Positions 1 through 15,318 of a DNA stretch of 15,359 nucleotides are shown piece after piece. Source of the stretch: a virus; UHGV virus genome UHGV-1915822; one strand, written 5' to 3'. The position numbers and the translations under genes are program-made. Position 1 is the first letter of the stretch, and the number at the start of each line of letters is the position of its first letter. Under the pieces are notes generated by a model that made no database searches, was not told the origin of the DNA, and saw only the letters and a program-made list of their open reading frames with translations.

Positions 1-47
1 ACACAGCTGTTACACTGTATGCGCTCCAAGAAAAGGAAGTGAGGAAA

Positions 48-215
48 TCAAAAGTTTTTAGCGATTATTTTTACTAATGTATAACCGTTGTCGAGATAGT
101 CTTGAATAGCTTCATAGAATACCTCCCAAGATTCATAAGTTTCATTTAAGCAAACAGGGATCAATGAATCTTTTTCTTGTGTGTAAAGTAGCGCTGATGC
201 GTGGATTTGTTTCAT
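48..215 (-). CDS. hypothetical small acidic protein (55 aa), divergently transcribed from the early region
   Basis: Manually reverse-complemented ORF, below the 60-aa cutoff of the supplied track: MKQIHASALLYTQEKDSLIPVCLNETYESWEVFYEAIQDYLDNGYTLVKIIAKNF. ATG is at plus 213-215, stop at plus 48-50. An AAAGGTGG ribosome-binding site lies 9 nt upstream on the minus strand, and a sigma-A-like promoter lies upstream at plus 251-279. No recognisable domain. Confidence 0.35.
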   Translation of the reverse strand: MKQIHASALLYTQEKDSLIPVCLNETYESWEVFYEAIQDYLDNGYTLVKIIAKNF

Positions 216-250
216 ATAAGGGTGCCACCTTTCATATATTTTATGGTTAT

Positions 251-279
251 AGTATAGCAGGAAATATGCATAATGTCAA
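251..279 (-). promoter_or_regulatory. sigma-A-type promoter on the minus strand (TTGACA, 17-bp spacer, TG-extended TATACT)
   Basis: The reverse complement of plus 251-279 reads TTGACA-TTATGCATATTTCCTGC-TATACT. The spacer ends in TGC, giving a TGn extended -10. It is positioned about 35 nt upstream of the minus-strand ORF start at 215. Confidence 0.45.
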
Positions 280-312
280 TAGAAATACAGAAAGTTTTAT
301 AAAAATAAATAT

Positions 313-361
313 AAAATATTTTGAAAAAAGTATTGACAAAAGTTTTGAAAAAAGTTATAAT
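313..361 (+). promoter_or_regulatory. consensus sigma-A-type early promoter (TTGACA-N17-TATAAT) with AT-rich upstream palindrome
   Basis: -35 TTGACA at 333-338, exact 17-bp spacer, -10 TATAAT at 356-361. A 10-bp palindrome AAAATATTTT sits at 313-322 in the UP-element position. The first well-supported plus-strand gene starts at 389. Confidence 0.55.
319..355. repeat. two exact 13-bp direct repeats TTTTGAAAAAAGT bracketing the -35 hexamer (candidate operator)
   Basis: Exact copies at 319-331 and 343-355, 24 bp apart, on either side of TTGACA (333-338). Read directly from the sequence. Confidence 0.7.
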
Positions 362-388
362 ATAATCAAAGAAAAGGAGGGAATAAAT

Positions 389-589
389 ATGAAAACAGTA
401 AATAAGATGTTATTTAAAGCGGCGATTACGAAGGCAGATGGGATCATGTATAATGTTCATGATTTATTAAGTGGATTAGATTTTAATGACCCTGAGTTGT
501 TTTTTAGGATTTATGCTATTAAGAAATTGGTAAATGATTTAGTAGAAACGGTTGATGAACTAGATAAGTATAATGAGGAGGAAGAATAG
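389..589 (+). CDS. hypothetical small acidic early protein (66 aa)
   Basis: ATG at 389 preceded by GAAAAGGAGGG (371-381). This is the 3-prime part of track ORF 164..589; the upstream part overlaps the promoter region and is judged non-coding. Product MKTVNK...DELDKYNEEEE has net charge about -6 and a poly-Glu tail. Confidence 0.55.
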   Translation: MKTVNKMLFKAAITKADGIMYNVHDLLSGLDFNDPELFFRIYAIKKLVNDLVETVDELDKYNEEEE

Positions 590-591
590 AA

Positions 592-765
592 ATGCCGGTT
601 GAGTTTATGGATGATTTACTAGAGAGCTTAAGTTTAATTGAAACAGCTATTGTGCATTTATCTATGAATTATTCTCAAAAAGGGGATATTTTGACGGGGA
701 CGATATTACAGCAAATTGGTGGGCAATTAGATAAACTTATTAGAAAATGGGATTATGAAGAATAG
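592..765 (+). CDS. hypothetical small acidic early protein (57 aa)
   Basis: ATG at 592 with GAGGAGG (575-581) 10 nt upstream, stop TAG at 763-765. Manually translated as MPVEFMDDLLESLSLIETAIVHLSMNYSQKGDILTGTILQQIGGQLDKLIRKWDYEE. Absent from the track because it is under 60 aa. Confidence 0.5.
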   Translation: MPVEFMDDLLESLSLIETAIVHLSMNYSQKGDILTGTILQQIGGQLDKLIRKWDYEE

Positions 766-768
766 TCG

Positions 769-801
769 TATAATGTATGAATAAGTGTTCATATATTCAT
801 A
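769..801. promoter_or_regulatory. -10-like TATAAT followed by an 8-bp inverted repeat (TATGAATA / TATTCATA), possible operator
   Basis: TATAAT at 769-774 with no convincing -35. Inverted repeat arms at 777-784 and 794-801 separated by 9 bp. Lies in the 173-bp AT-rich spacer upstream of the p6-like gene. Confidence 0.25.
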
Positions 802-938
802 AGATCAGGAGACAAAGACAAAATGAATATGTTTATTTGTTATTTATATTTTTTCTCGTTTTTCTATTTATTTTATAAGGTTATTCGTTCGCTCATTTGC
901 GAATGCATAAAATTAAATAAGGAAGGGAGGGAAATGGA

Positions 939-1193
939 ATGAAGTATGTAAAAAAGAAGATTAAGGTATATTATTATACGGCTCACAGGATGATTTTAGA
1001 AAATGGCAGCCCTAAGTCAATAGGTGAATATACGATTTCATATTCAAGTAAAAATGCGCAGGATCGTGTAATTCAAGACTTATTTAATAAAAAGTATGGG
1101 CAAGGGGTATATTTAGTAACGAGTATTACTGAGCAGGAAAAAATTTATGGTATGCCTTTAGATGAATTTATTACAAAAGCGGAGGAATTGTAG
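939..1193 (+). CDS. phi29 p6-like double-stranded DNA-binding (histone-like) protein
   Basis: 84 aa, ribosome-binding site GGAGGG (926-931) 7 nt upstream. The C-terminal segment NKKYGQGVYLVTSITEQEKIYGMPLDEFITKA resembles the phi29 p6 segment KRKYKGEGRVTVVSVEPNTEVYELPVEKFLEVA as I recall it. It sits immediately upstream of the SSB-like gene, as in phi29 (gene 6 then gene 5). Confidence 0.55.
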   Translation: MKYVKKKIKVYYYTAHRMILENGSPKSIGEYTISYSSKNAQDRVIQDLFNKKYGQGVYLVTSITEQEKIYGMPLDEFITKAEEL

Positions 1194-1602: not shown

Positions 1603-1612
1603 GAAGGAGGAC

Positions 1613-1638
1613 GGGGAGGTAAAAACTCCCCTTTCTTT
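1613..1638 (+). terminator. intrinsic-terminator-like hairpin (GGGGAG / CTCCCC stem, 7-nt loop, T-rich tail)
   Basis: Stem 1613-1618 pairs with 1626-1631, loop GTAAAAA, followed by TTTCTTTAT. It sits between the SSB stop (1602) and the next start (1641). Confidence 0.5.
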
Positions 1639-5750: not shown

Positions 5751-6471
5751 TTGCGGAGTTACCTGCGGGTATAAAAATCAGAATTATCGGAATTATTGGG
5801 GATTTGGACATTACGGCGTTGACTATGTGTCCGATAGTCTTGTTCTCTATGCTTTAGGAAACGGCGAGGTGTTGATGAAAGGATGGGATAATCTTTTTGG
5901 CAACATCATTATTATTAAATACCCTGAGGTATATAATCATGCCACGGGTGAAGTAAAAGATTTAATTTGCCGTATGTATCACATGGCGAGTGAAAGTCCT
6001 TGTGAAGTTGGGTATCAAGTAAGCAGAGGAGAAAGCATTGGCATTATGGGGACGACAGGCCAATACTCTAGTGGTGTTCATGTCCATATTGAATTTGATA
6101 CCGACACGAAATATTATAATTACGGAGTTCCGTTGGCTAAGGATTCCAACCTGATTAAAAAGGGTGTGGATTCTACGGTTGATCCTTCGGACATTCTTTA
6201 TGTAGGTTCTAACCAGAGAGTTTACAATAATTCTCTAAATGGGTGGGCAACGGATAAAGAATTAAATTTGCCCTTATTGGACGAAGAACCCGAAAAACCA
6301 AAAGATCCCGAAATGAGTGAAGAATTGAAAAAACAACTGGATGAATTAGCATCCCGTGTTTCTAAAAATGAAAAAGATATATCGGATCTTTACACAGGAA
6401 TGGCGAAGAACGATGAATTTCGTGAAAATATGTTGAAAGCAATGGAGGCGGTTATAAATGGCTCTAACTAG
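5722..6471 (+). CDS. M23 family zinc metallopeptidase (peptidoglycan endopeptidase), virion-associated lysin or endolysin
   Basis: 249 aa. Contains HYGVD (HxxxD) and GTTGQYSSGVHVHIE (HxH), the hallmark LytM/M23 zinc-ligand motifs. Ribosome-binding site GGGAGG (5708-5713). The C-terminal ~100 aa is a charged coiled-coil-like region with no recognisable cell-wall-binding domain. Confidence 0.85.
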   Translation: MQKLTLPVNNCGVTCGYKNQNYRNYWGFGHYGVDYVSDSLVLYALGNGEVLMKGWDNLFGNIIIIKYPEVYNHATGEVKDLICRMYHMASESPCEVGYQVSRGESIGIMGTTGQYSSGVHVHIEFDTDTKYYNYGVPLAKDSNLIKKGVDSTVDPSDILYVGSNQRVYNNSLNGWATDKELNLPLLDEEPEKPKDPEMSEELKKQLDELASRVSKNEKDISDLYTGMAKNDEFRENMLKAMEAVINGSN

Positions 6472-6829
6472 AGACGAATATATGCAAATTTTAGAGCGCA
6501 TCAGTGAAACCGGCGGTTTTACGGAAGCTATGCTCGATGATTTGCAGAAGCTAAAAGACGATTACGATGAACGGGAAGGGATGCTGAAAGTCGAGGATGA
6601 AGCATCGGATAAAACCGTATATACGGATGATCAGGTGTATGATACCGACGGAGTAAGCTGGAGAGATAAATACGACGATATGAAGCGCCGGTATAAAGCA
6701 AGATTCTTTTCTACTCCTCTTGAAGCTAAAGAAGAGCAGATAGAAGATATTGCATCAGACAGCGACAGCACAACCCGTACCTATGAGGAAATTTTTGAAA
6801 CAAGAGAGGGAGATTATAATGCCGACTAA
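6458..6829 (+). CDS. putative head scaffolding protein
   Basis: 123 aa, highly acidic and helix-prone (rich in D/E/K/R), GGAGG at 6444-6448. It sits immediately upstream of the major capsid gene and overlaps it, as scaffold gene 7 does in phi29. No direct sequence match recalled, so the call rests on position and composition. Confidence 0.5.
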   Translation: MALTRDEYMQILERISETGGFTEAMLDDLQKLKDDYDEREGMLKVEDEASDKTVYTDDQVYDTDGVSWRDKYDDMKRRYKARFFSTPLEAKEEQIEDIASDSDSTTRTYEEIFETREGDYNAD

Positions 6830-8111
6830 ACAGACGTACAAAGCCTTGTCGCCTACTGCGCAGAACATGGATATTATGAACTATGTGCGTTCGCAGACCG
6901 ATTTTAATTATCAGAACAGAATCCCGATTGCAACACAGGAAAATTTAAACAACATTTATCAGACGATTCTTTGTAATTACGATTTGCAGAATGAGTTTAT
7001 TAAAACCCTTGTGAATCGTATTGCTCTGACTACCATTTCTTCCAAGCTGATTGAGAATCCCCTTGCCCCCTTGAAAAAGGGCGTAATTCGGCACGGTGAA
7101 TTTGTAAATGAATACTTTGTGAATATTGCAAAAGCGCATGAATTTGATCAGGGCGTTGCAGAGAAGGAGGTATTCAAACGGGAAATCCCGGATGTAGATG
7201 CAGTGTTTCATAAGCTGAACCTCAAGAACTTTTATAAAGTAACCATCTCGAATGAAATGCTCCGAGAAGCGTTCTTGTCCGACAGCGGTATTTCCGACAT
7301 GGTAAGTCGGATTATCGACAGCTTATACAGCGGGGCGAACTATGATGAATTCCTCTGCATGAAAAATATTATCGCAGAAGGGGCAAATAACGGAGCATTT
7401 TTGCCTGTTACGATTCCTGCTGTTACGGGCGATAATATTAAAGATGTGGTAGCAACCATCAAAGCGACTTCAATCAAACTGACGTTCCCCTCAACGAAAT
7501 ACAATGCTATGGGCGTTTTGACACTGACGAAACCCGAAGATCAGATTATTTTGATTGACCCTGATTTTGAGGCTTCAATGGATGTGAACGTTTTGGCAGC
7601 CGCTTTTAATCTCCCTTATGCTCAGTTCATGGCAAACCGGATTCCGATTGATGATTTCGGGGGGATTACCGGTGTCAAAGCCGCTCTTGTTGACCGTAAT
7701 TTCTTTATGGTGTTTGATTTTGAACAGTTGTTCACCGAAAATTACAATGGTCAGGGTTTGTATTGGAACTATTTCTATCATGTATGGAAAATGTTCTCCT
7801 ATTCTCCGTTCTCGAACGCTGTTTTGTTTACTACGGAAACGAATAGTGTACAGAGTGTTGATGTAACGCCCGCAACGGCAACGGTAGCAAGAGGAAATAC
7901 CCAGCAAATGACCGCTGTTGTAGCAACTACCGGCTTTGCACCGAAATCGGTTGATTGGACGGTAACCGGTGCGCAAACTCCAACTTCCTCGATCACCAAT
8001 ACCGGTCTTTTGAGTGTTGCAACCAATGAACCGAATACCACTTTGACGGTAAAAGCAACCAGTACTTTCGATTCCTCGAAATCGGATACCGCCAGCATTA
8101 CCGTTGGCTAA
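6819..8111 (+). CDS. major capsid protein with C-terminal bacterial Ig-like (Big_2-type) domain
   Basis: Start chosen at ATG 6819 (GAGGGAG at 6805-6811); the track ORF begins in-frame upstream at 6750 inside the scaffold gene. NEFIKTLVNRIALTTI parallels phi29 gp8 NDFITTLVDRIGLVVI. The C-terminal ~90 aa (VDVTPATATVARGNTQQMTAVVATTGF...TVKATS...ASITVG) has the Big_2 pattern. Confidence 0.8.
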   Translation: MPTKQTYKALSPTAQNMDIMNYVRSQTDFNYQNRIPIATQENLNNIYQTILCNYDLQNEFIKTLVNRIALTTISSKLIENPLAPLKKGVIRHGEFVNEYFVNIAKAHEFDQGVAEKEVFKREIPDVDAVFHKLNLKNFYKVTISNEMLREAFLSDSGISDMVSRIIDSLYSGANYDEFLCMKNIIAEGANNGAFLPVTIPAVTGDNIKDVVATIKATSIKLTFPSTKYNAMGVLTLTKPEDQIILIDPDFEASMDVNVLAAAFNLPYAQFMANRIPIDDFGGITGVKAALVDRNFFMVFDFEQLFTENYNGQGLYWNYFYHVWKMFSYSPFSNAVLFTTETNSVQSVDVTPATATVARGNTQQMTAVVATTGFAPKSVDWTVTGAQTPTSSITNTGLLSVATNEPNTTLTVKATSTFDSSKSDTASITVG

Positions 8112-8119
8112 AGAATAAC

Positions 8120-8149
8120 GGGGAGCTTTTCGCTCCCCTTTTTTCTTTT
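8120..8149 (+). terminator. rho-independent terminator after the capsid gene
   Basis: Stem GGGGAGC (8120-8126) pairs with GCTCCCC (8132-8138), 5-nt loop, then TTTTTTCTTTT. Confidence 0.8.
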
Positions 8150-10706: not shown

Positions 10707-11731
10707 TGGCCGAATATAGCATTGAATTAGGTACATTAGTAAAAATGGGCTATCCGCTTGCTCTTAATGATTACCCGATCTTTCGCGAAGATTACCGGGA
10801 AATACTAAACCGAAAAATTATCGATCACTTCTATTTCCGTGAAATTGGTTTTGAAACGCCCGACCGTTTTAATCATTTCCTCCATATGGTGATGCATGAA
10901 AACATGCCGTATTTCAACCAATTATATGAGAGTGAATTCTTAAAGTTTGACCCTCTCAGCACGGACTATTTTGAAGAGGTATCGGAGGATGTAACGAACA
11001 ATATAAAAGCGGGCAGACGGGACAACACACACACCCAAACCGAAACCACCGGTGACAGGTATACTTCGTTACATTCTCTCGATTCCTCCATCAACGTTGT
11101 TGGTAATGTATCCGACAAGGGAAATATTAACGATACCGAGAACATTACTTCAAAATCAACCCAAACGAATGATTTGACTACACAGGTAAATTCAAGCAGT
11201 CAAGGTGACGGAACACAAGACACGACCGGAAGCAGAACCAAATATTTTTCCGATATGCCGCAAACCGCAATTACCAATACCACAACGGTTAATCCCGATG
11301 GAAGCGTCACCTATTCTACAAACGGTTATGCAACCACCATGGAAACGGAAAGCACAGCCCAGCACGATGTTACCCATACCGAGGAAACGGGGCAATCTAC
11401 ATCGACCAATACCGGCACTATTGTCACCGAGGGAGAAAGCGACCGAACCTATGGAAGAACAACCACAAATACAACCGATGAAACCAACGATAGAACCCAA
11501 AAAGACACCCAACACGAAGATACACAACGCAATATCCTGAACAATTTGTCTTTCTTAGACAATGCGGTCAATAGCGAGGCAACCGATGAAACAAGAAAAA
11601 GTAAAAATGCTCGGAAAGGGCGCTCCGGCGTTTCTCCTTCTTCCCTTATTCAGGAATATCGGAATACGTTTTTAAATATTGATAAACAGGTTATTGCAAG
11701 CCTCGAAAATTTATTTATGGGGGTATTCTAA
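10706..11731 (+). CDS. lower collar protein (phi29 gp11-like) with long polar low-complexity insert
   Basis: 341 aa. Position between portal and appendage genes matches gene 11 in phi29. TAATG overlaps on both sides. The central ~170 aa is T/S/N/D/E/Q-rich low complexity. Confidence 0.6.
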   Translation: MAEYSIELGTLVKMGYPLALNDYPIFREDYREILNRKIIDHFYFREIGFETPDRFNHFLHMVMHENMPYFNQLYESEFLKFDPLSTDYFEEVSEDVTNNIKAGRRDNTHTQTETTGDRYTSLHSLDSSINVVGNVSDKGNINDTENITSKSTQTNDLTTQVNSSSQGDGTQDTTGSRTKYFSDMPQTAITNTTTVNPDGSVTYSTNGYATTMETESTAQHDVTHTEETGQSTSTNTGTIVTEGESDRTYGRTTTNTTDETNDRTQKDTQHEDTQRNILNNLSFLDNAVNSEATDETRKSKNARKGRSGVSPSSLIQEYRNTFLNIDKQVIASLENLFMGVF

Positions 11732-14700
11732 TGTACGATTGCAACAAAAAGCCTTGCACTCCACCTCCTGTGGATCCATGCGAGCATCACCATCCTTGTG
11801 GCCCGGATTTTCCGAATTTTTGCCCTCCTCCTGCTCCCCACCCTGCCCCTTATCAGCCTCCTTGCCCATCCGTTGCGGAGGGCTCTTCGCTATATGAGGC
11901 CGTCAACAATCTGACGAATCGCGTCAACACCTGTATGGCAACCTATAACGATGTAATGGCAAACTGCTATAAAACACTTCACAATCTGGAATGCGCGGCA
12001 CAGGAAAACGGGGCATATTATGATTGCCATGAGGTATGGACAGAAACCGGTTATCAGCCGGACGAAAGCGCAACCTATACCATTATTCATAAAGCCGTTG
12101 TCGACCGACGCGGTGAGCCGATCCGTATGCAATTACATCTTGCTTATGGAAATACGACTAATTCGCAGATTACCCAAAACTTATTTTCTGCATCCGAAGT
12201 AACGCTGGCAGACAAAATTGTCCCGGCTATTCCTCTTACCGGTACAGGCTGGTATGGTAATGCGATTATAAACGGTTGCCCGATTCCTTCAACCGAAGCC
12301 TCTACCTATTATACAGTTGGCTTTACGAAAAAAGGTGTAATGCGCTATTACCCGAATTCGGTATCGGTTGATCAAATGTTAAAGGATACCATTGAGAATG
12401 CCATGGGGTGCTCAGGCGTTCTCATTATCAACAGCCAGATTGCAAATGATGCATTCTTTGAGCATATCCCGAACGCTACCGAACAAAAAGCACGTATCGT
12501 TATGGGCCAAAACTACGATACCCGCGAGGTCATGATTCTCGTATGCGGACAGGAAAACAATGTTGATAAAAAAGGTCTCACTTCTAAAGCGTGCGCCGAA
12601 ATTCTTCTTCAGTATGGTTGTGACATCGCCGTGGAGCTTTCCGAAGGTGACAGCGCAGGAGCATGTGACAAAGGGCAACTGATGTTCGTCCCCGACAATA
12701 ACAATGTGCCGGAGACTTACGCATTCTGGTATATCTCCCGCAAATGCTTCTATTGCAATGATTACCAGCGTGAACTCGCAAAGCTCATGCAGAATTATGG
12801 AACTTGTCTTTGGCAAACATATTTGAATAAAAAGAAAATCGAACAGCTTCGGGAGGATTTGAATACCGAAATCACAAATCGCGAGGATGCCGATCAGGTA
12901 TTGCAAAACCAAATCCTCGAAGAAGTCGATAATCGCGTTAAAGCTGACGAAGTATTGCAAAACCAAATCCTTGCAGAGGTCGATAACCGCGTTAAAGCAG
13001 ACGAAGTATTACAAAACCAAATCCTCGCGGAAGTGGACAACAGAGTTAACGCAGATAATGTCCTGCAAAACCAGATCCTTACGGAAGTAGACGCGAGAAA
13101 AAATGCAGACGATGTTTTACAAAATCAAATCCTTGAGGAAGTAAAAAATAGAGAAAACGCAGATAACACCCTGCAAGAACAAATCCTTACCGAAACAAAC
13201 GCAAGAATCGATGCGGATGAATCCCTGCAAAATCAAATTATTACCGAAACAAACGCCCGTGTCGCGTATGATGAAAACTTACAAGCACAAATTACAAAAG
13301 AAGTAACCGATAGAACAAATGCGGATGCTACCCTGCATCAAGAAATATTAACCGAACAAGGCGAAAGAATCGCCGCAGATGAAGTTCTTCAAAGAAATAT
13401 CAACGAAGAAGCCGCTACTAGAGCAGAAGAAGATACAAAACTACAAGGTAATATTGATGCAGAAACAACCGCCAGACAAGAAGCAGATGCCACCCTGCAA
13501 TCGAATATCGACGCATTGGCACAAAGAGTAACCGTCCTTGAAACGGATGTCGATCAGCTTCAAACCCTCTATAATTCCTTGCAGGAACAAACCGCCGCAA
13601 TGGATACAGCCATTACTTCCATTCAGCAAACGATTGCTTCTATTGAAACTTCTCTGAATAATGTAAAAACCTCTATCGACAATATCACCAACGGTACAAC
13701 ACTCCTGCCGTATTTGCCGATCAAAGGCGGTACAATGCAAGGTTCCATCAACATGAATAATAAATCGATTACCAATGTTCCTTCTCCTTCAGCAGACGGC
13801 GACGCGGTAAACAAAAAATATGTTGATGACGCGATTGCAGGTGGTATTACTCCTCCAACAGGCGACTATCTCCCCTTATCCGGCGGTACCATGACGGGAA
13901 ACATCAACATGAATAACAACCGTGTAACCTCTGTAGGAGCGCCCAGCGCAGGTACAGATGCAGTAAATAAAGACTATGTTGATGATGAAATCGCAACCGC
14001 AGGAGATGGAAAATTCCTTCCGTTGGCAGGTGGCGCATTAACCGGCGCAGTTACTACTACCGAAACTGAATTTGAAAATAATGAGCTTGTTACAAAATCG
14101 TATGTAGATGGACAGGTTGCAACCGCTGGAAATGGAAAATTCCTTCCATTAGCAGGTGGAACCATGACCGGGGCAATCAACATGGGTAATCAGAAAGTAA
14201 CAGCGGTCGCTACGCCTACTACAGGCACCGATGCTACCAATAAAACCTATGTGGATAACGCCATTTCTACTGCCGGAAATGGAAAATTCCTGCCGTTAGC
14301 AGGCGGAACTATGACCGGAGCAATCAATATGGGTAATCAAAAAGTAACAGCAGTCGCCACCCCGACAGATGGCTCAGATGCCGCAAATAAACAATATGTT
14401 GATCAAGCTGTTGCCGGTTCGTCTTATACGCTGCCTGCCGCTACTACTACTACACTTGGAGGTGTAAAGGTTGGAGAAGGTTTGTCCGTTACCGCGGATG
14501 GCACGTTGTCGGCTACGGGTGGAAGCACAGATATTCCCATTGCAAGCGATACCGTTCTTGGTGGAATTAAAGTCGGGGAATCACTTTCTATTGAAGCTGA
14601 CGGTACTTTAAGCGTTGTTGCATCCGATAATCCTACTACTCCGCGAATGCCTGTTAATAAAGAGTATGTCGATAATCAGCTCGACAATTTTGTAGCAAAA

Positions 14701-15318
14701 ACTGGCGATACTATGACAGGGCATTTATCAATGAGCAATCGATCAAACGTTAAAATTTTAGATGATGACGATGAACCTGTTGCAAGTCTTGGTTATCTGT
14801 TTGGCGTTACAAAACCTAGAGGAATTATATCTTTCTTAAAAAACCCGGGCACCATCAATAACCTATTTAATGAAAATTATCTTGCTACGTATGCCTTAAA
14901 TCAACGAGAAGCTGTAAACTATGTAGGACGTACATTCAAATTCGGTGGAACCTTTACGGGAGGAGCATATAACTGTGTTGCTACACATTTAGGATTTGAA
15001 GATCCTAATGGTAAGGCTTCCAGATATGCAAATGTCAAATTAGATATTGACATCTATTGCTTAACTCCTATTACGACTGCTCCTTCCTTTGCCTTCAATC
15101 TACCAACTTCTATTTTTACGGTAAGAACTGGAACTATCACAGACGAAATATGGAAATTTACATACGCAGATAATGTATATTTGAATATTACTGCTCAAGA
15201 AGGTGGTACTATTATTTGTAAATTTGGAGGTTCACCTGCCGTTGGTAGGCATATTTCTGCTACGATTATACCTTATCAGCTTGCTTGGAGTATTGATCCG
15301 GCTATCAATCTTCATTAA
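11731..15318 (+). CDS. pre-neck appendage / tail fibre protein (gp12-position), multidomain
   Basis: 1195 aa at the gene-12 position. Contains a Cys/Pro/His-rich N-terminus, an N-terminal globular region of ~280 aa, about 15 tandem 14-aa repeats, five phage tail-fibre-type repeats (LPLAGGTMTG...NK.YVD), two GG-VKVGE-DGTLS repeats, and a distinct C-terminal domain. Confidence 0.85.
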   Translation: MYDCNKKPCTPPPVDPCEHHHPCGPDFPNFCPPPAPHPAPYQPPCPSVAEGSSLYEAVNNLTNRVNTCMATYNDVMANCYKTLHNLECAAQENGAYYDCHEVWTETGYQPDESATYTIIHKAVVDRRGEPIRMQLHLAYGNTTNSQITQNLFSASEVTLADKIVPAIPLTGTGWYGNAIINGCPIPSTEASTYYTVGFTKKGVMRYYPNSVSVDQMLKDTIENAMGCSGVLIINSQIANDAFFEHIPNATEQKARIVMGQNYDTREVMILVCGQENNVDKKGLTSKACAEILLQYGCDIAVELSEGDSAGACDKGQLMFVPDNNNVPETYAFWYISRKCFYCNDYQRELAKLMQNYGTCLWQTYLNKKKIEQLREDLNTEITNREDADQVLQNQILEEVDNRVKADEVLQNQILAEVDNRVKADEVLQNQILAEVDNRVNADNVLQNQILTEVDARKNADDVLQNQILEEVKNRENADNTLQEQILTETNARIDADESLQNQIITETNARVAYDENLQAQITKEVTDRTNADATLHQEILTEQGERIAADEVLQRNINEEAATRAEEDTKLQGNIDAETTARQEADATLQSNIDALAQRVTVLETDVDQLQTLYNSLQEQTAAMDTAITSIQQTIASIETSLNNVKTSIDNITNGTTLLPYLPIKGGTMQGSINMNNKSITNVPSPSADGDAVNKKYVDDAIAGGITPPTGDYLPLSGGTMTGNINMNNNRVTSVGAPSAGTDAVNKDYVDDEIATAGDGKFLPLAGGALTGAVTTTETEFENNELVTKSYVDGQVATAGNGKFLPLAGGTMTGAINMGNQKVTAVATPTTGTDATNKTYVDNAISTAGNGKFLPLAGGTMTGAINMGNQKVTAVATPTDGSDAANKQYVDQAVAGSSYTLPAATTTTLGGVKVGEGLSVTADGTLSATGGSTDIPIASDTVLGGIKVGESLSIEADGTLSVVASDNPTTPRMPVNKEYVDNQLDNFVAKTGDTMTGHLSMSNRSNVKILDDDDEPVASLGYLFGVTKPRGIISFLKNPGTINNLFNENYLATYALNQREAVNYVGRTFKFGGTFTGGAYNCVATHLGFEDPNGKASRYANVKLDIDIYCLTPITTAPSFAFNLPTSIFTVRTGTITDEIWKFTYADNVYLNITAQEGGTIICKFGGSPAVGRHISATIIPYQLAWSIDPAINLH
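12868..13530 (+). repeat. tandem 42-bp (14-codon) repeats, about 15 units, inside the appendage gene
   Basis: Unit consensus at protein level is roughly N-R-x-x-A-D-x-x-L-Q-N-Q-I-L-x-E-V-D. Adjacent DNA units are near-identical, for example GTATTGCAAAACCAAATCCT recurs at 42-bp spacing. Confidence 0.8.
13711..14420 (+). repeat. five tail-fibre repeat units of 126-147 bp; the last two are near-identical 147-bp direct repeats
   Basis: Protein units LP(L/I)xGGTMxG.INM.N..VT.V..P....DA.NK.YVD. The DNA copies beginning near 14125 and 14272 are almost identical over about 147 bp. Confidence 0.8.
14431..14620 (+). repeat. two ~30-codon repeats (T-LGG-KVGE-L-ADGTLS)
   Basis: LPAATTTTLGGVKVGEGLSVTADGTLSA followed by IPIASDTVLGGIKVGESLSIEADGTLSV. 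Confidence 0.7.

Follow-up and report, generated by a model that had tools for sequence, protein, structure and literature searches.

Small acidic proteins encoded at the left end of a phi29-type phage raise the question of whether they act against the host and by what means. Three such proteins are encoded in the virus genome UHGV-1915822, of which a stretch of 15,359 bp (the window, meaning the whole stretch of DNA that was analyzed) represents the nearly complete genome (full size of ~15.5 kb) of a phi29-type, protein-primed gut podophage. Gene A (positions 48 to 215, minus strand; 55 amino acids [aa]) is transcribed divergently from gene B (389 to 589, plus strand; 66 aa) and gene C (592 to 765, plus strand; 57 aa). 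A preliminary description of the sequence had proposed that these open reading frames (ORFs) encode DNA mimics or other anti-host factors. Its account of their coordinates, orientation, and acidity agrees with the ORF list and the computed charges: A has a net charge of -4 and a pI of 4.55, B and C compute to -6 each, B ends in EEEE (net charge of -2 without this tail), and the pI values of the three proteins range from 4.4 to 4.6. The reading that we favor, with a probability of roughly 40%, is that A, B, and C are lineage-specific accessory genes that are expressed early, with A acting as a plug on a host enzyme and B and C forming a pair of protein-binding helical hairpins.

A, B, and C are real protein-coding genes, because their ORFs are intact in relatives, they are under purifying selection, and they carry expression signals. 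Nine related contigs with nucleotide identities of 86% to 100% were recovered, and all three ORFs are intact in every one of them, with seven distinct relatives counted. The pooled ratios of nonsynonymous to synonymous polymorphism (pN/pS) are 0.11 for B, 0.29 for C, and 0.43 for A, the last of which is based on only 11 variable sites. The comparison values for the genes encoding the p6-like protein, the single-stranded DNA-binding protein (SSB), p4, the terminal protein (TP), and the DNA polymerase (DNAP) range from 0.03 to 0.14. A 54-aa form of C without the C-terminal YEE occurs in some relatives. Versions of B with 107 or 141 aa, which are reported by some gene callers, are artifacts with starts upstream of the promoter; B is called at 66 aa in relatives with a different upstream region.

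The strong early promoter noted in the preliminary description ahead of B and C is a TTGACA-17-TATAAT element at positions 333 to 361 (plus strand), which matches the consensus at 12 of 12 positions and drives B, C, a variable gene slot, the p6-like gene, and the SSB gene. B is preceded by the Shine-Dalgarno sequence AAGGAGG, 8 nucleotides (nt) before the ATG at position 389, and C is preceded by GAGGAGG (575 to 581, plus strand), 10 nt before its ATG at position 592. The latter sequence sits within codons E63 to E65 of B, whose stop codon is at positions 587 to 589. The location of the ribosome-binding site (RBS) of C inside B codons implies that the translation of the two genes would be coupled. 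On the other strand, a sigma-A-type promoter of A at positions 251 to 279 (minus strand) consists of TTGACA, a 17-nt spacer, and a TG-extended TATACT (11 of 12 matches), and it recurs at the same site in L003, a same-species contig that reaches 129 nt further left than the window. The Shine-Dalgarno sequence of A, AAGGTGG (225 to 231, minus strand), lies 9 nt before the ATG. An intrinsic terminator of A was found by scanning L003 (positions 156 to 123, minus strand), corresponding to window positions 27 to -6, with a 14-pair stem, a 6-nt loop, and TTTTTGTGCA; the window contains the part at positions 1 to 27 (minus strand), and the T-run falls just past its left edge. The RNA fold of the terminator has a free energy of -24.3 kcal/mol (z = -4.75). 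Given this strong terminator just downstream, A reads as a self-contained monocistronic promoter-RBS-ORF-terminator cassette that abuts an A-tract-rich genome terminus.

The left terminal region (L003 positions 1 to 129 and window positions 1 to 47) contains about seven copies of the phased A-tract repeats TGCAAAAA and GCACAAAAA, which resemble the bendable p6-binding replication origins at the phi29 genome ends. The two ends of the window show a weak, degenerate inverted-repeat likeness only. A packaging RNA (pRNA) to the left of A was considered and rejected: Rfam gave nothing at gathering thresholds, and the region holds the A terminator and the A-tract repeats instead.

The statement that A, B, and C have no recognizable domain was borne out by database searches. 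None of the three matches Pfam, PHROGs, or NCBIfam, even at E values of up to 5 to 10 (A reaches only DUF4377, at 0.18), and no profile search in these databases assigned them to a known housekeeping family. A PDB sequence search with the three proteins returned chance matches only (E > 0.3). The homologs of A, B, and C found in a word-indexed search of 5.8 billion proteins all have identities of 78% or more, with nothing more distant. When the A profile was run with HMMER against the full set of 1.84 billion cluster representatives, it retrieved its own cluster and one spurious protein only. P0017, a repetitive protein that matches A via IQDYLDxG, was rejected as a spurious homolog.

Among isolates, Hungatella phage CH17P1 is the nearest (60% DNAP identity); human-fecal contigs and Clostridium and Eggerthella phages come next, and a megablast search with the whole window gave no match among GenBank phages. 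A, B, and C are unmatched among the ORFs of the nearest phages, namely, CH17P1, CI55P1, LE1-1, the MT83xxxx fecal contigs, and L044, a 15.6-kb contig binned with a Eubacterium metagenome-assembled genome (GTDB genomes; 55% DNAP identity). A DNAP search in IMG/VR and JGI metagenomes found only loci at 41% to 49% identity, and none of these intermediate relatives, including L044, carries A, B, or C. Unrelated small genes fill the equivalent positions in CH17P1, CI55P1, LE1-1, the fecal contigs, and L044. Because these searches gave no homologs below 78% identity, A, B, and C are orphans at the species level, and they lie in hypervariable accessory slots. Phage genomes normally contain small orphan early proteins in slots of this kind. 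The small early ORFs of phi29 (gp0.4, gp0.6, gp1, gp5.5, and gp16.6 to gp16.9) and of gut relatives (CI55P1 gp01 to gp05, LE1-1 gp18 and gp23, and CH17P1 gp15 to gp18) belong to the same genomic class, that is, short, often acidic, lineage-specific genes grouped at genome ends or early-operon starts, and they show no sequence similarity to A, B, or C.

The AlphaFold2 (AF2) model of A, built from almost single-sequence input, is very confident, with a predicted local distance difference test score of 92.2, and it predicts a beta-beta-alpha-beta mini-fold with strands at residues 4 to 14, 17 to 27, and 46 to 54 and a helix at residues 30 to 42. The helix is strongly amphipathic. E28, E31, E35, D39, and D42 lie on one face and form an acidic stripe (resultant of 0.88) at 184 degrees from the hydrophobic moment, and the last strand carries K49 and K53. 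Among the relatives, all five helix carboxylates and the hydrophobic helix residues are invariant, and ten other positions vary. The predicted fold is a common one. In a Foldseek search of the model against PDB, there was no significant match, the best being archaeal ribosomal protein LX; p56 of phi29 and PZA is in the list at template modeling (TM) scores of 0.54 to 0.58, and YkzG, the epsilon subunit of the Firmicutes RNA polymerase (RNAP), is in the list at 0.58. The model gives A an inhibitor-like mini-fold and charge pattern, which partly supports the preliminary interpretation for this gene, without membership in a known family.

These features also bear on the idea that some of the ORFs are nonfunctional, and that A in particular is a decaying or noncoding remnant at the genome end. 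The comparatively high pN/pS of A, from only 11 variable sites, and the lack of homologs outside the species would fit such a remnant. Against it stand the intact ORF in all relatives, the consensus promoter, the good RBS, and the strong terminator, together with the very confident model and substitutions that spare the hydrophobic core and the acidic stripe. We regard this explanation as very improbable.

The structural likeness raises the question of whether A inhibits uracil-DNA glycosylase (UDG) in the manner of p56 from the Bacillus phages phi29, PZA, and VMY22 (PDB accession numbers 2LE2, 3ZOQ, 4L5N, and 8AIL). Both proteins are early, acidic products of phi29-type phages and are nearly equal in size (56 aa for p56 and 55 aa for A). 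The model of A has the beta1-beta2-alpha1-beta3 order of the p56 fold of about 56 residues, and both proteins combine an acidic helix/hairpin-loop (L1) face with a basic beta-3 strand (PMC3239192). The strands and helix are longer in A, which lacks the disordered N-terminal segment with F-x-D-S-Y and the signature E-x2-Y-x(0,2)-G and has no detectable sequence homology with p56. The p56 gene is downstream of the polymerase gene, whereas A forms a separate, divergent cassette ahead of the early operon. The role proposed for p56 is protection of the single-stranded DNA replication intermediates of such phages (PMC10303552). Pfam and PHROGs profile searches found no dUTPase among the 18 window genes, and protein-primed replication without a dUTPase is the setting for which a need for p56 has been proposed (PMC10303552).

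A might be a p56-type UDG inhibitor, either a very divergent homolog or a convergent analog, that would dimerize via beta-3 and the helix and trap the intercalating Leu/Phe of the host enzyme Ung; the p56 homodimer, joined through beta-3 and alpha-1, forms a hydrophobic pocket and binds Ung at a 2:1 stoichiometry. Besides size, fold order, the phi29-like setting without a dUTPase, and the early promoter, a short alignment favors this proposal. The sole segment aligned by hhalign pairs W30-E31-V-F-Y34 of A with F36-E37-V-L-Y40 of p56, residues that line the pocket trapping the Ung Phe/Leu and hold the dimer, and the F36W mutant of p56 is active (PMC3711442); a [FW]E..Y pattern occurs in only about 2% of shuffled A sequences. 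The helix-face geometry favors the A-p56 pairings W30-L33, F33-F36, Y34-E37, and I37-Y40 (p56 elements from PMC3239192), a register that probably puts Y34 and I37 of A at E37 and Y40 of p56. Because this geometry fits another register better, the WEVFY/FEVLY match was downgraded as a p56 motif and is probably coincidental in three dimensions.

Several further results weigh against a p56-type function, against our own reading, or against both. Every sequence test was nonsignificant, in line with the statement in the preliminary description that no similarity to p56 is visible. No BLASTP alignment between A and p56 was obtained at E values of ≤100, an hhalign comparison of the A family with a profile of six p56 members yielded a probability of 0.4% (P = 0.15), a p56 hidden Markov model missed A in the window ORF set, and p56 was not among the phmmer matches of A in the PDB sequences at E values of ≤10. 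The Foldseek E values of the p56 likeness, at 1.6 to 2, are not significant. The PROSITE-style signature E-x2-Y-x(0,2)-G is absent from A, in which no Gly occurs within two residues of E31-V-F-Y34, and a regular expression for it matched only the p6-like protein in the window. The F-x-D-S-Y motif, which is conserved at the N terminus of all verified p56 inhibitors (PMC10303552), is likewise absent from A, and a regular expression finds it only in true p56 ORFs. In addition, Northropvirinae homologs that have the p56 fold and carry E-x-x-I are inactive in published assays, and fold alone is therefore no predictor of function (PMC10303552). Acidity is also usual in this proteome, as the net charge is negative in 14 of the 18 phage proteins, and a 123-aa protein of the same phage exceeds A, B, and C in acidity per residue; four of the six net negative charges of B come from its EEEE tail. 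Taking both sides together, we consider a p56-type UDG inhibitor unlikely.

A second inhibitor with a comparable design is T7 Gp2, which inhibits the Escherichia coli RNAP (PDB accession numbers 2LMC and 4LK0). The A model shares the Gp2 fold and its negatively charged strip. In Gp2, the strip E34/D37/E38/E41/E44 is opposite R56 and R58 of beta-3 (PMC3778932), which parallels the acidic helix and basic beta-3 of A. Together with the Foldseek match to YkzG, this parallel suggests that A could be a Gp2- or epsilon-like RNAP-binding protein that modulates or shuts off host transcription. A contains no arginine, however, so that the invariant R56 and R58 with which Gp2 binds the beta-prime jaw have no Arg counterpart, the last strand having K49 and K53 in their stead, and no sequence similarity to Gp2 or epsilon was detected (in Pfam at E values of ≤10, only DUF4377 at 0.18). 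The biological logic differs as well, as T7 encodes its own RNAP whereas the phage of A depends on that of the host. Pfam and PHROGs profile searches found no RNAP gene among the 18 window genes, and the phage carries a p4-type activator of the host RNAP; for this reason, a global shutoff of RNAP by A would be self-defeating and is unlikely. Binding of RNAP is thus a decidedly improbable function for A.

For B and C, nothing in the analysis supports mimicry. The B model is a generic antiparallel two-helix hairpin, comparable to the alpha-helical hairpins of the phytoplasma effector PHYL1/SAP54, EscO, and CHMP4B, in which the acidic end of helix 2 lies opposite a stripe of lysines on helix 1. 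The EEEE tail is encoded by GAGGAGGAAGAA (GAG GAG GAA GAA, positions 575 to 586), which is the Shine-Dalgarno region of C; 4 of the 14 acidic residues of B are in this RBS-encoded tail, and the tail varies among relatives (AEEE and EEGE). For C, two amphipathic helical segments are predicted from its sequence. Neither B nor C showed similarity to any known DNA mimic in the PDB sequence search or, for B, in the structure search, and the acidity of the two proteins is not good evidence for DNA mimicry. A paralogous origin of B and C was considered and rejected (hhalign P = 0.16 over 5 columns). The DNA-mimic or anti-host role put forward in the preliminary description therefore divides between the genes: it is partly supported for A, whose predicted inhibitor-like mini-fold has a one-sided acidic helix, and unsupported, though conceivable, for B, a generic hairpin with an RBS-encoded tail, and for C.

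The position of B and C in variable slots fits an accessory or host-interaction role. They might instead serve the phage itself as housekeeping accessories, in protein-primed replication or in the transcription switch from early to late genes, a role that could extend to A. Candidate partners would be the p6-like protein, SSB, TP, and p4, and B and C would be functional analogs of phi29 p1, p5.5, p16.7, or p17. Both genes share a transcript with the p6-like and SSB genes, ahead of a terminator-like hairpin, and no genome of the species lacks them; purifying selection on B is of the same strength as on SSB and p4, and helical hairpins are typical oligomerization or adaptor modules. Such a role is difficult to reconcile with the other phi29-like phages that were examined: none of them, even the closest (55% to 60% DNAP identity), carries B or C, and unrelated genes fill the same slots. 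Neither protein is similar to the phi29 early proteins or has a membrane anchor of the p1/p16.7 kind. We view a housekeeping role as doubtful, although it deserves to be taken seriously.

Our favored reading, in which A, B, and C are early accessory genes directed at protein targets, can be formulated as follows. The three genes would be expressed from host sigma-A-type promoters once the left end of the phage genome enters the cell. A would most likely act stoichiometrically as a plug on a host nucleic-acid-handling protein, either occupying its binding groove or repelling DNA from it. The single helix would present five invariant carboxylates on one face and the last strand two lysines, an architecture shared by p56 and Gp2. 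UDG would be the most sensible target, given long single-stranded replication intermediates and no dUTPase. B and C would be coupled small helical-hairpin proteins made from the early transcript that also encodes the p6-like protein and SSB, and their most likely mode of action would be the binding of other proteins, perhaps as a four-helix bundle formed by B and C, with either a host factor or the replication or transcription machinery of the phage itself as their partner. All of these functions are ones that we infer, and anti-host inhibitor roles for A, B, and C are plausible. A bolder version, which we think improbable, is that A is the founding member of a new sequence family with the p56 fold, by which phi29-like phages of gut Clostridia inhibit UDG or some other DNA-groove enzyme of the host, and that B and C are a separate, new two-component helical-hairpin pair that targets the host.

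The phi29-like setting assumed in the preliminary description is confirmed by the rest of the window. Profile searches identify the phi29 SSB (p5), the p4 late activator, TP, the protein-primed family B DNAP, and the gp16 packaging ATPase, as well as a holin-like protein, an M23 peptidase, a phi29-type major capsid protein, the tail knob, the connector, the lower collar, and a 1,195-aa fiber. These Pfam and PHROG matches, together with the alignment of the p6-like protein, place the window among the phi29-like (Salasmaviridae-type) protein-primed phages, and same-species contigs span 15.4 to 15.8 kb. The p6-like (histone-like double-stranded DNA [dsDNA]-binding) gene (939 to 1193, plus strand; 84 aa) encodes a protein that aligns end to end with p6 of phi29 and B103 and with syntenic proteins, with a common C-terminal Y-x-M/L-P-x-E-x-F motif, and that weakly matches the dsDNA binding protein family phrog_6370 (E = 0.033). 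This gene marks the start of the conserved replication module p6-SSB-p4-TP-DNAP, and B and C upstream of it would therefore be lineage-specific additions. Every window gene except A is on one strand, and the structural genes come after DNAP and gp16. CI55P1 and LE1-1 are collinear like the window, whereas the late operon diverges from the early operon in CH17P1 and phi29.

The region between C and the p6-like gene is one of the variable slots, with a boundary placed at positions 772 to 817 by BLASTN homology breakpoints. Depending on the contig, the slot contains a 39-aa hydrophobic ORF, a gene of 104 to 106 aa, or a gene of 121 aa, and the counterparts of window positions 772 to 817 are at L004 742 to 1056, L006 834 to 1154, L015 9073 to 9438, and L019 4664 to 5029. 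The genes of 104 to 106 aa and 121 aa have no Pfam or PHROG match. In the window, the 39-aa ORF (823 to 942, plus strand; MNMFICYLYFFSFFYLFYKVIRSLICECIKLNKEGREME) has one strongly hydrophobic segment, with AGGAG 10 nt upstream, and is called as a gene in L003. Its stop codon and the start codon of the p6-like gene overlap (ATGA at 939 to 942), which suggests that the two could be translationally coupled, and its product may be a small membrane protein. L005 appeared to link this region to queuosine and bacterial genes, as a QueH-CoaE fusion and an SLT transglycosylase (954 to 2678) follow A, B, and C, and it was rejected as an assembly chimera: L005 is 99.8% identical to L004 up to position 953, after which the GC content jumps from 0.30 to above 0.50 (50% to 60% in the DNA joined to the phage left end), inside the 104-aa gene. 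The slot between A and B is variable as well: in two contigs from different samples, an RNase H gene lies between the A and B homologs (L017 730 to 1169 and L018 245 to 681). The insert occupies the divergent promoter region, and window positions 348 to 379 are duplicated on both of its sides. Gene calling splits the RNase H gene into two overlapping ORFs (about 100 and 61 aa), which indicates a frameshift or a sequencing error.

Further downstream, a terminator-like hairpin found by scanning after the SSB gene (1613 to 1631, plus strand) putatively closes a highly expressed early unit of B, C, the p6-like gene, and the SSB gene; a similar element follows the capsid gene (repeat D15). The two copies, at window positions 1604 to 1637 and 8111 to 8144, have the form GGGGAG...CTCCCC-TTT, and these paired hairpins could act as attenuators, adjusting the stoichiometry of proteins made in large amounts. 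The 123-aa protein mentioned above (6458 to 6829, plus strand; net charge of -19), which no other protein of the genome exceeds in acidity per residue, is encoded just upstream of the capsid gene. It has no PHROG match and is probably a scaffolding protein like phi29 gp7. The fiber gene (11731 to 15318) contains tandem 54-nt (18-aa) repeats in at least five copies and larger repeats of ~147 to 273 nt, with repeat regions at positions 12886 to 13209 and 13726 to 14418.

Inhibitors of Ung are hard to detect by sequence, and heuristic screens for them have mostly failed (PMC10303552). For this reason, A, an orphan from an uncultured gut phage with a p56- or Gp2-like predicted fold, is a cheap and directly testable candidate. 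If A proves inactive, the locus would add three more orphan early genes to a hypervariable accessory region, which is the ordinary case. If A founds a family of p56-fold inhibitors, the p56 inhibitor architecture would extend beyond the Bacillus Salasmaviridae, and the fold would have persisted though all of its sequence signatures were replaced. An active A would widen the sequence space of protein inhibitors of DNA repair or transcription enzymes, which are useful in base editing and as probes, and would mean that protein-primed phages of the gut meet the same uracil-excision problem as phi29.

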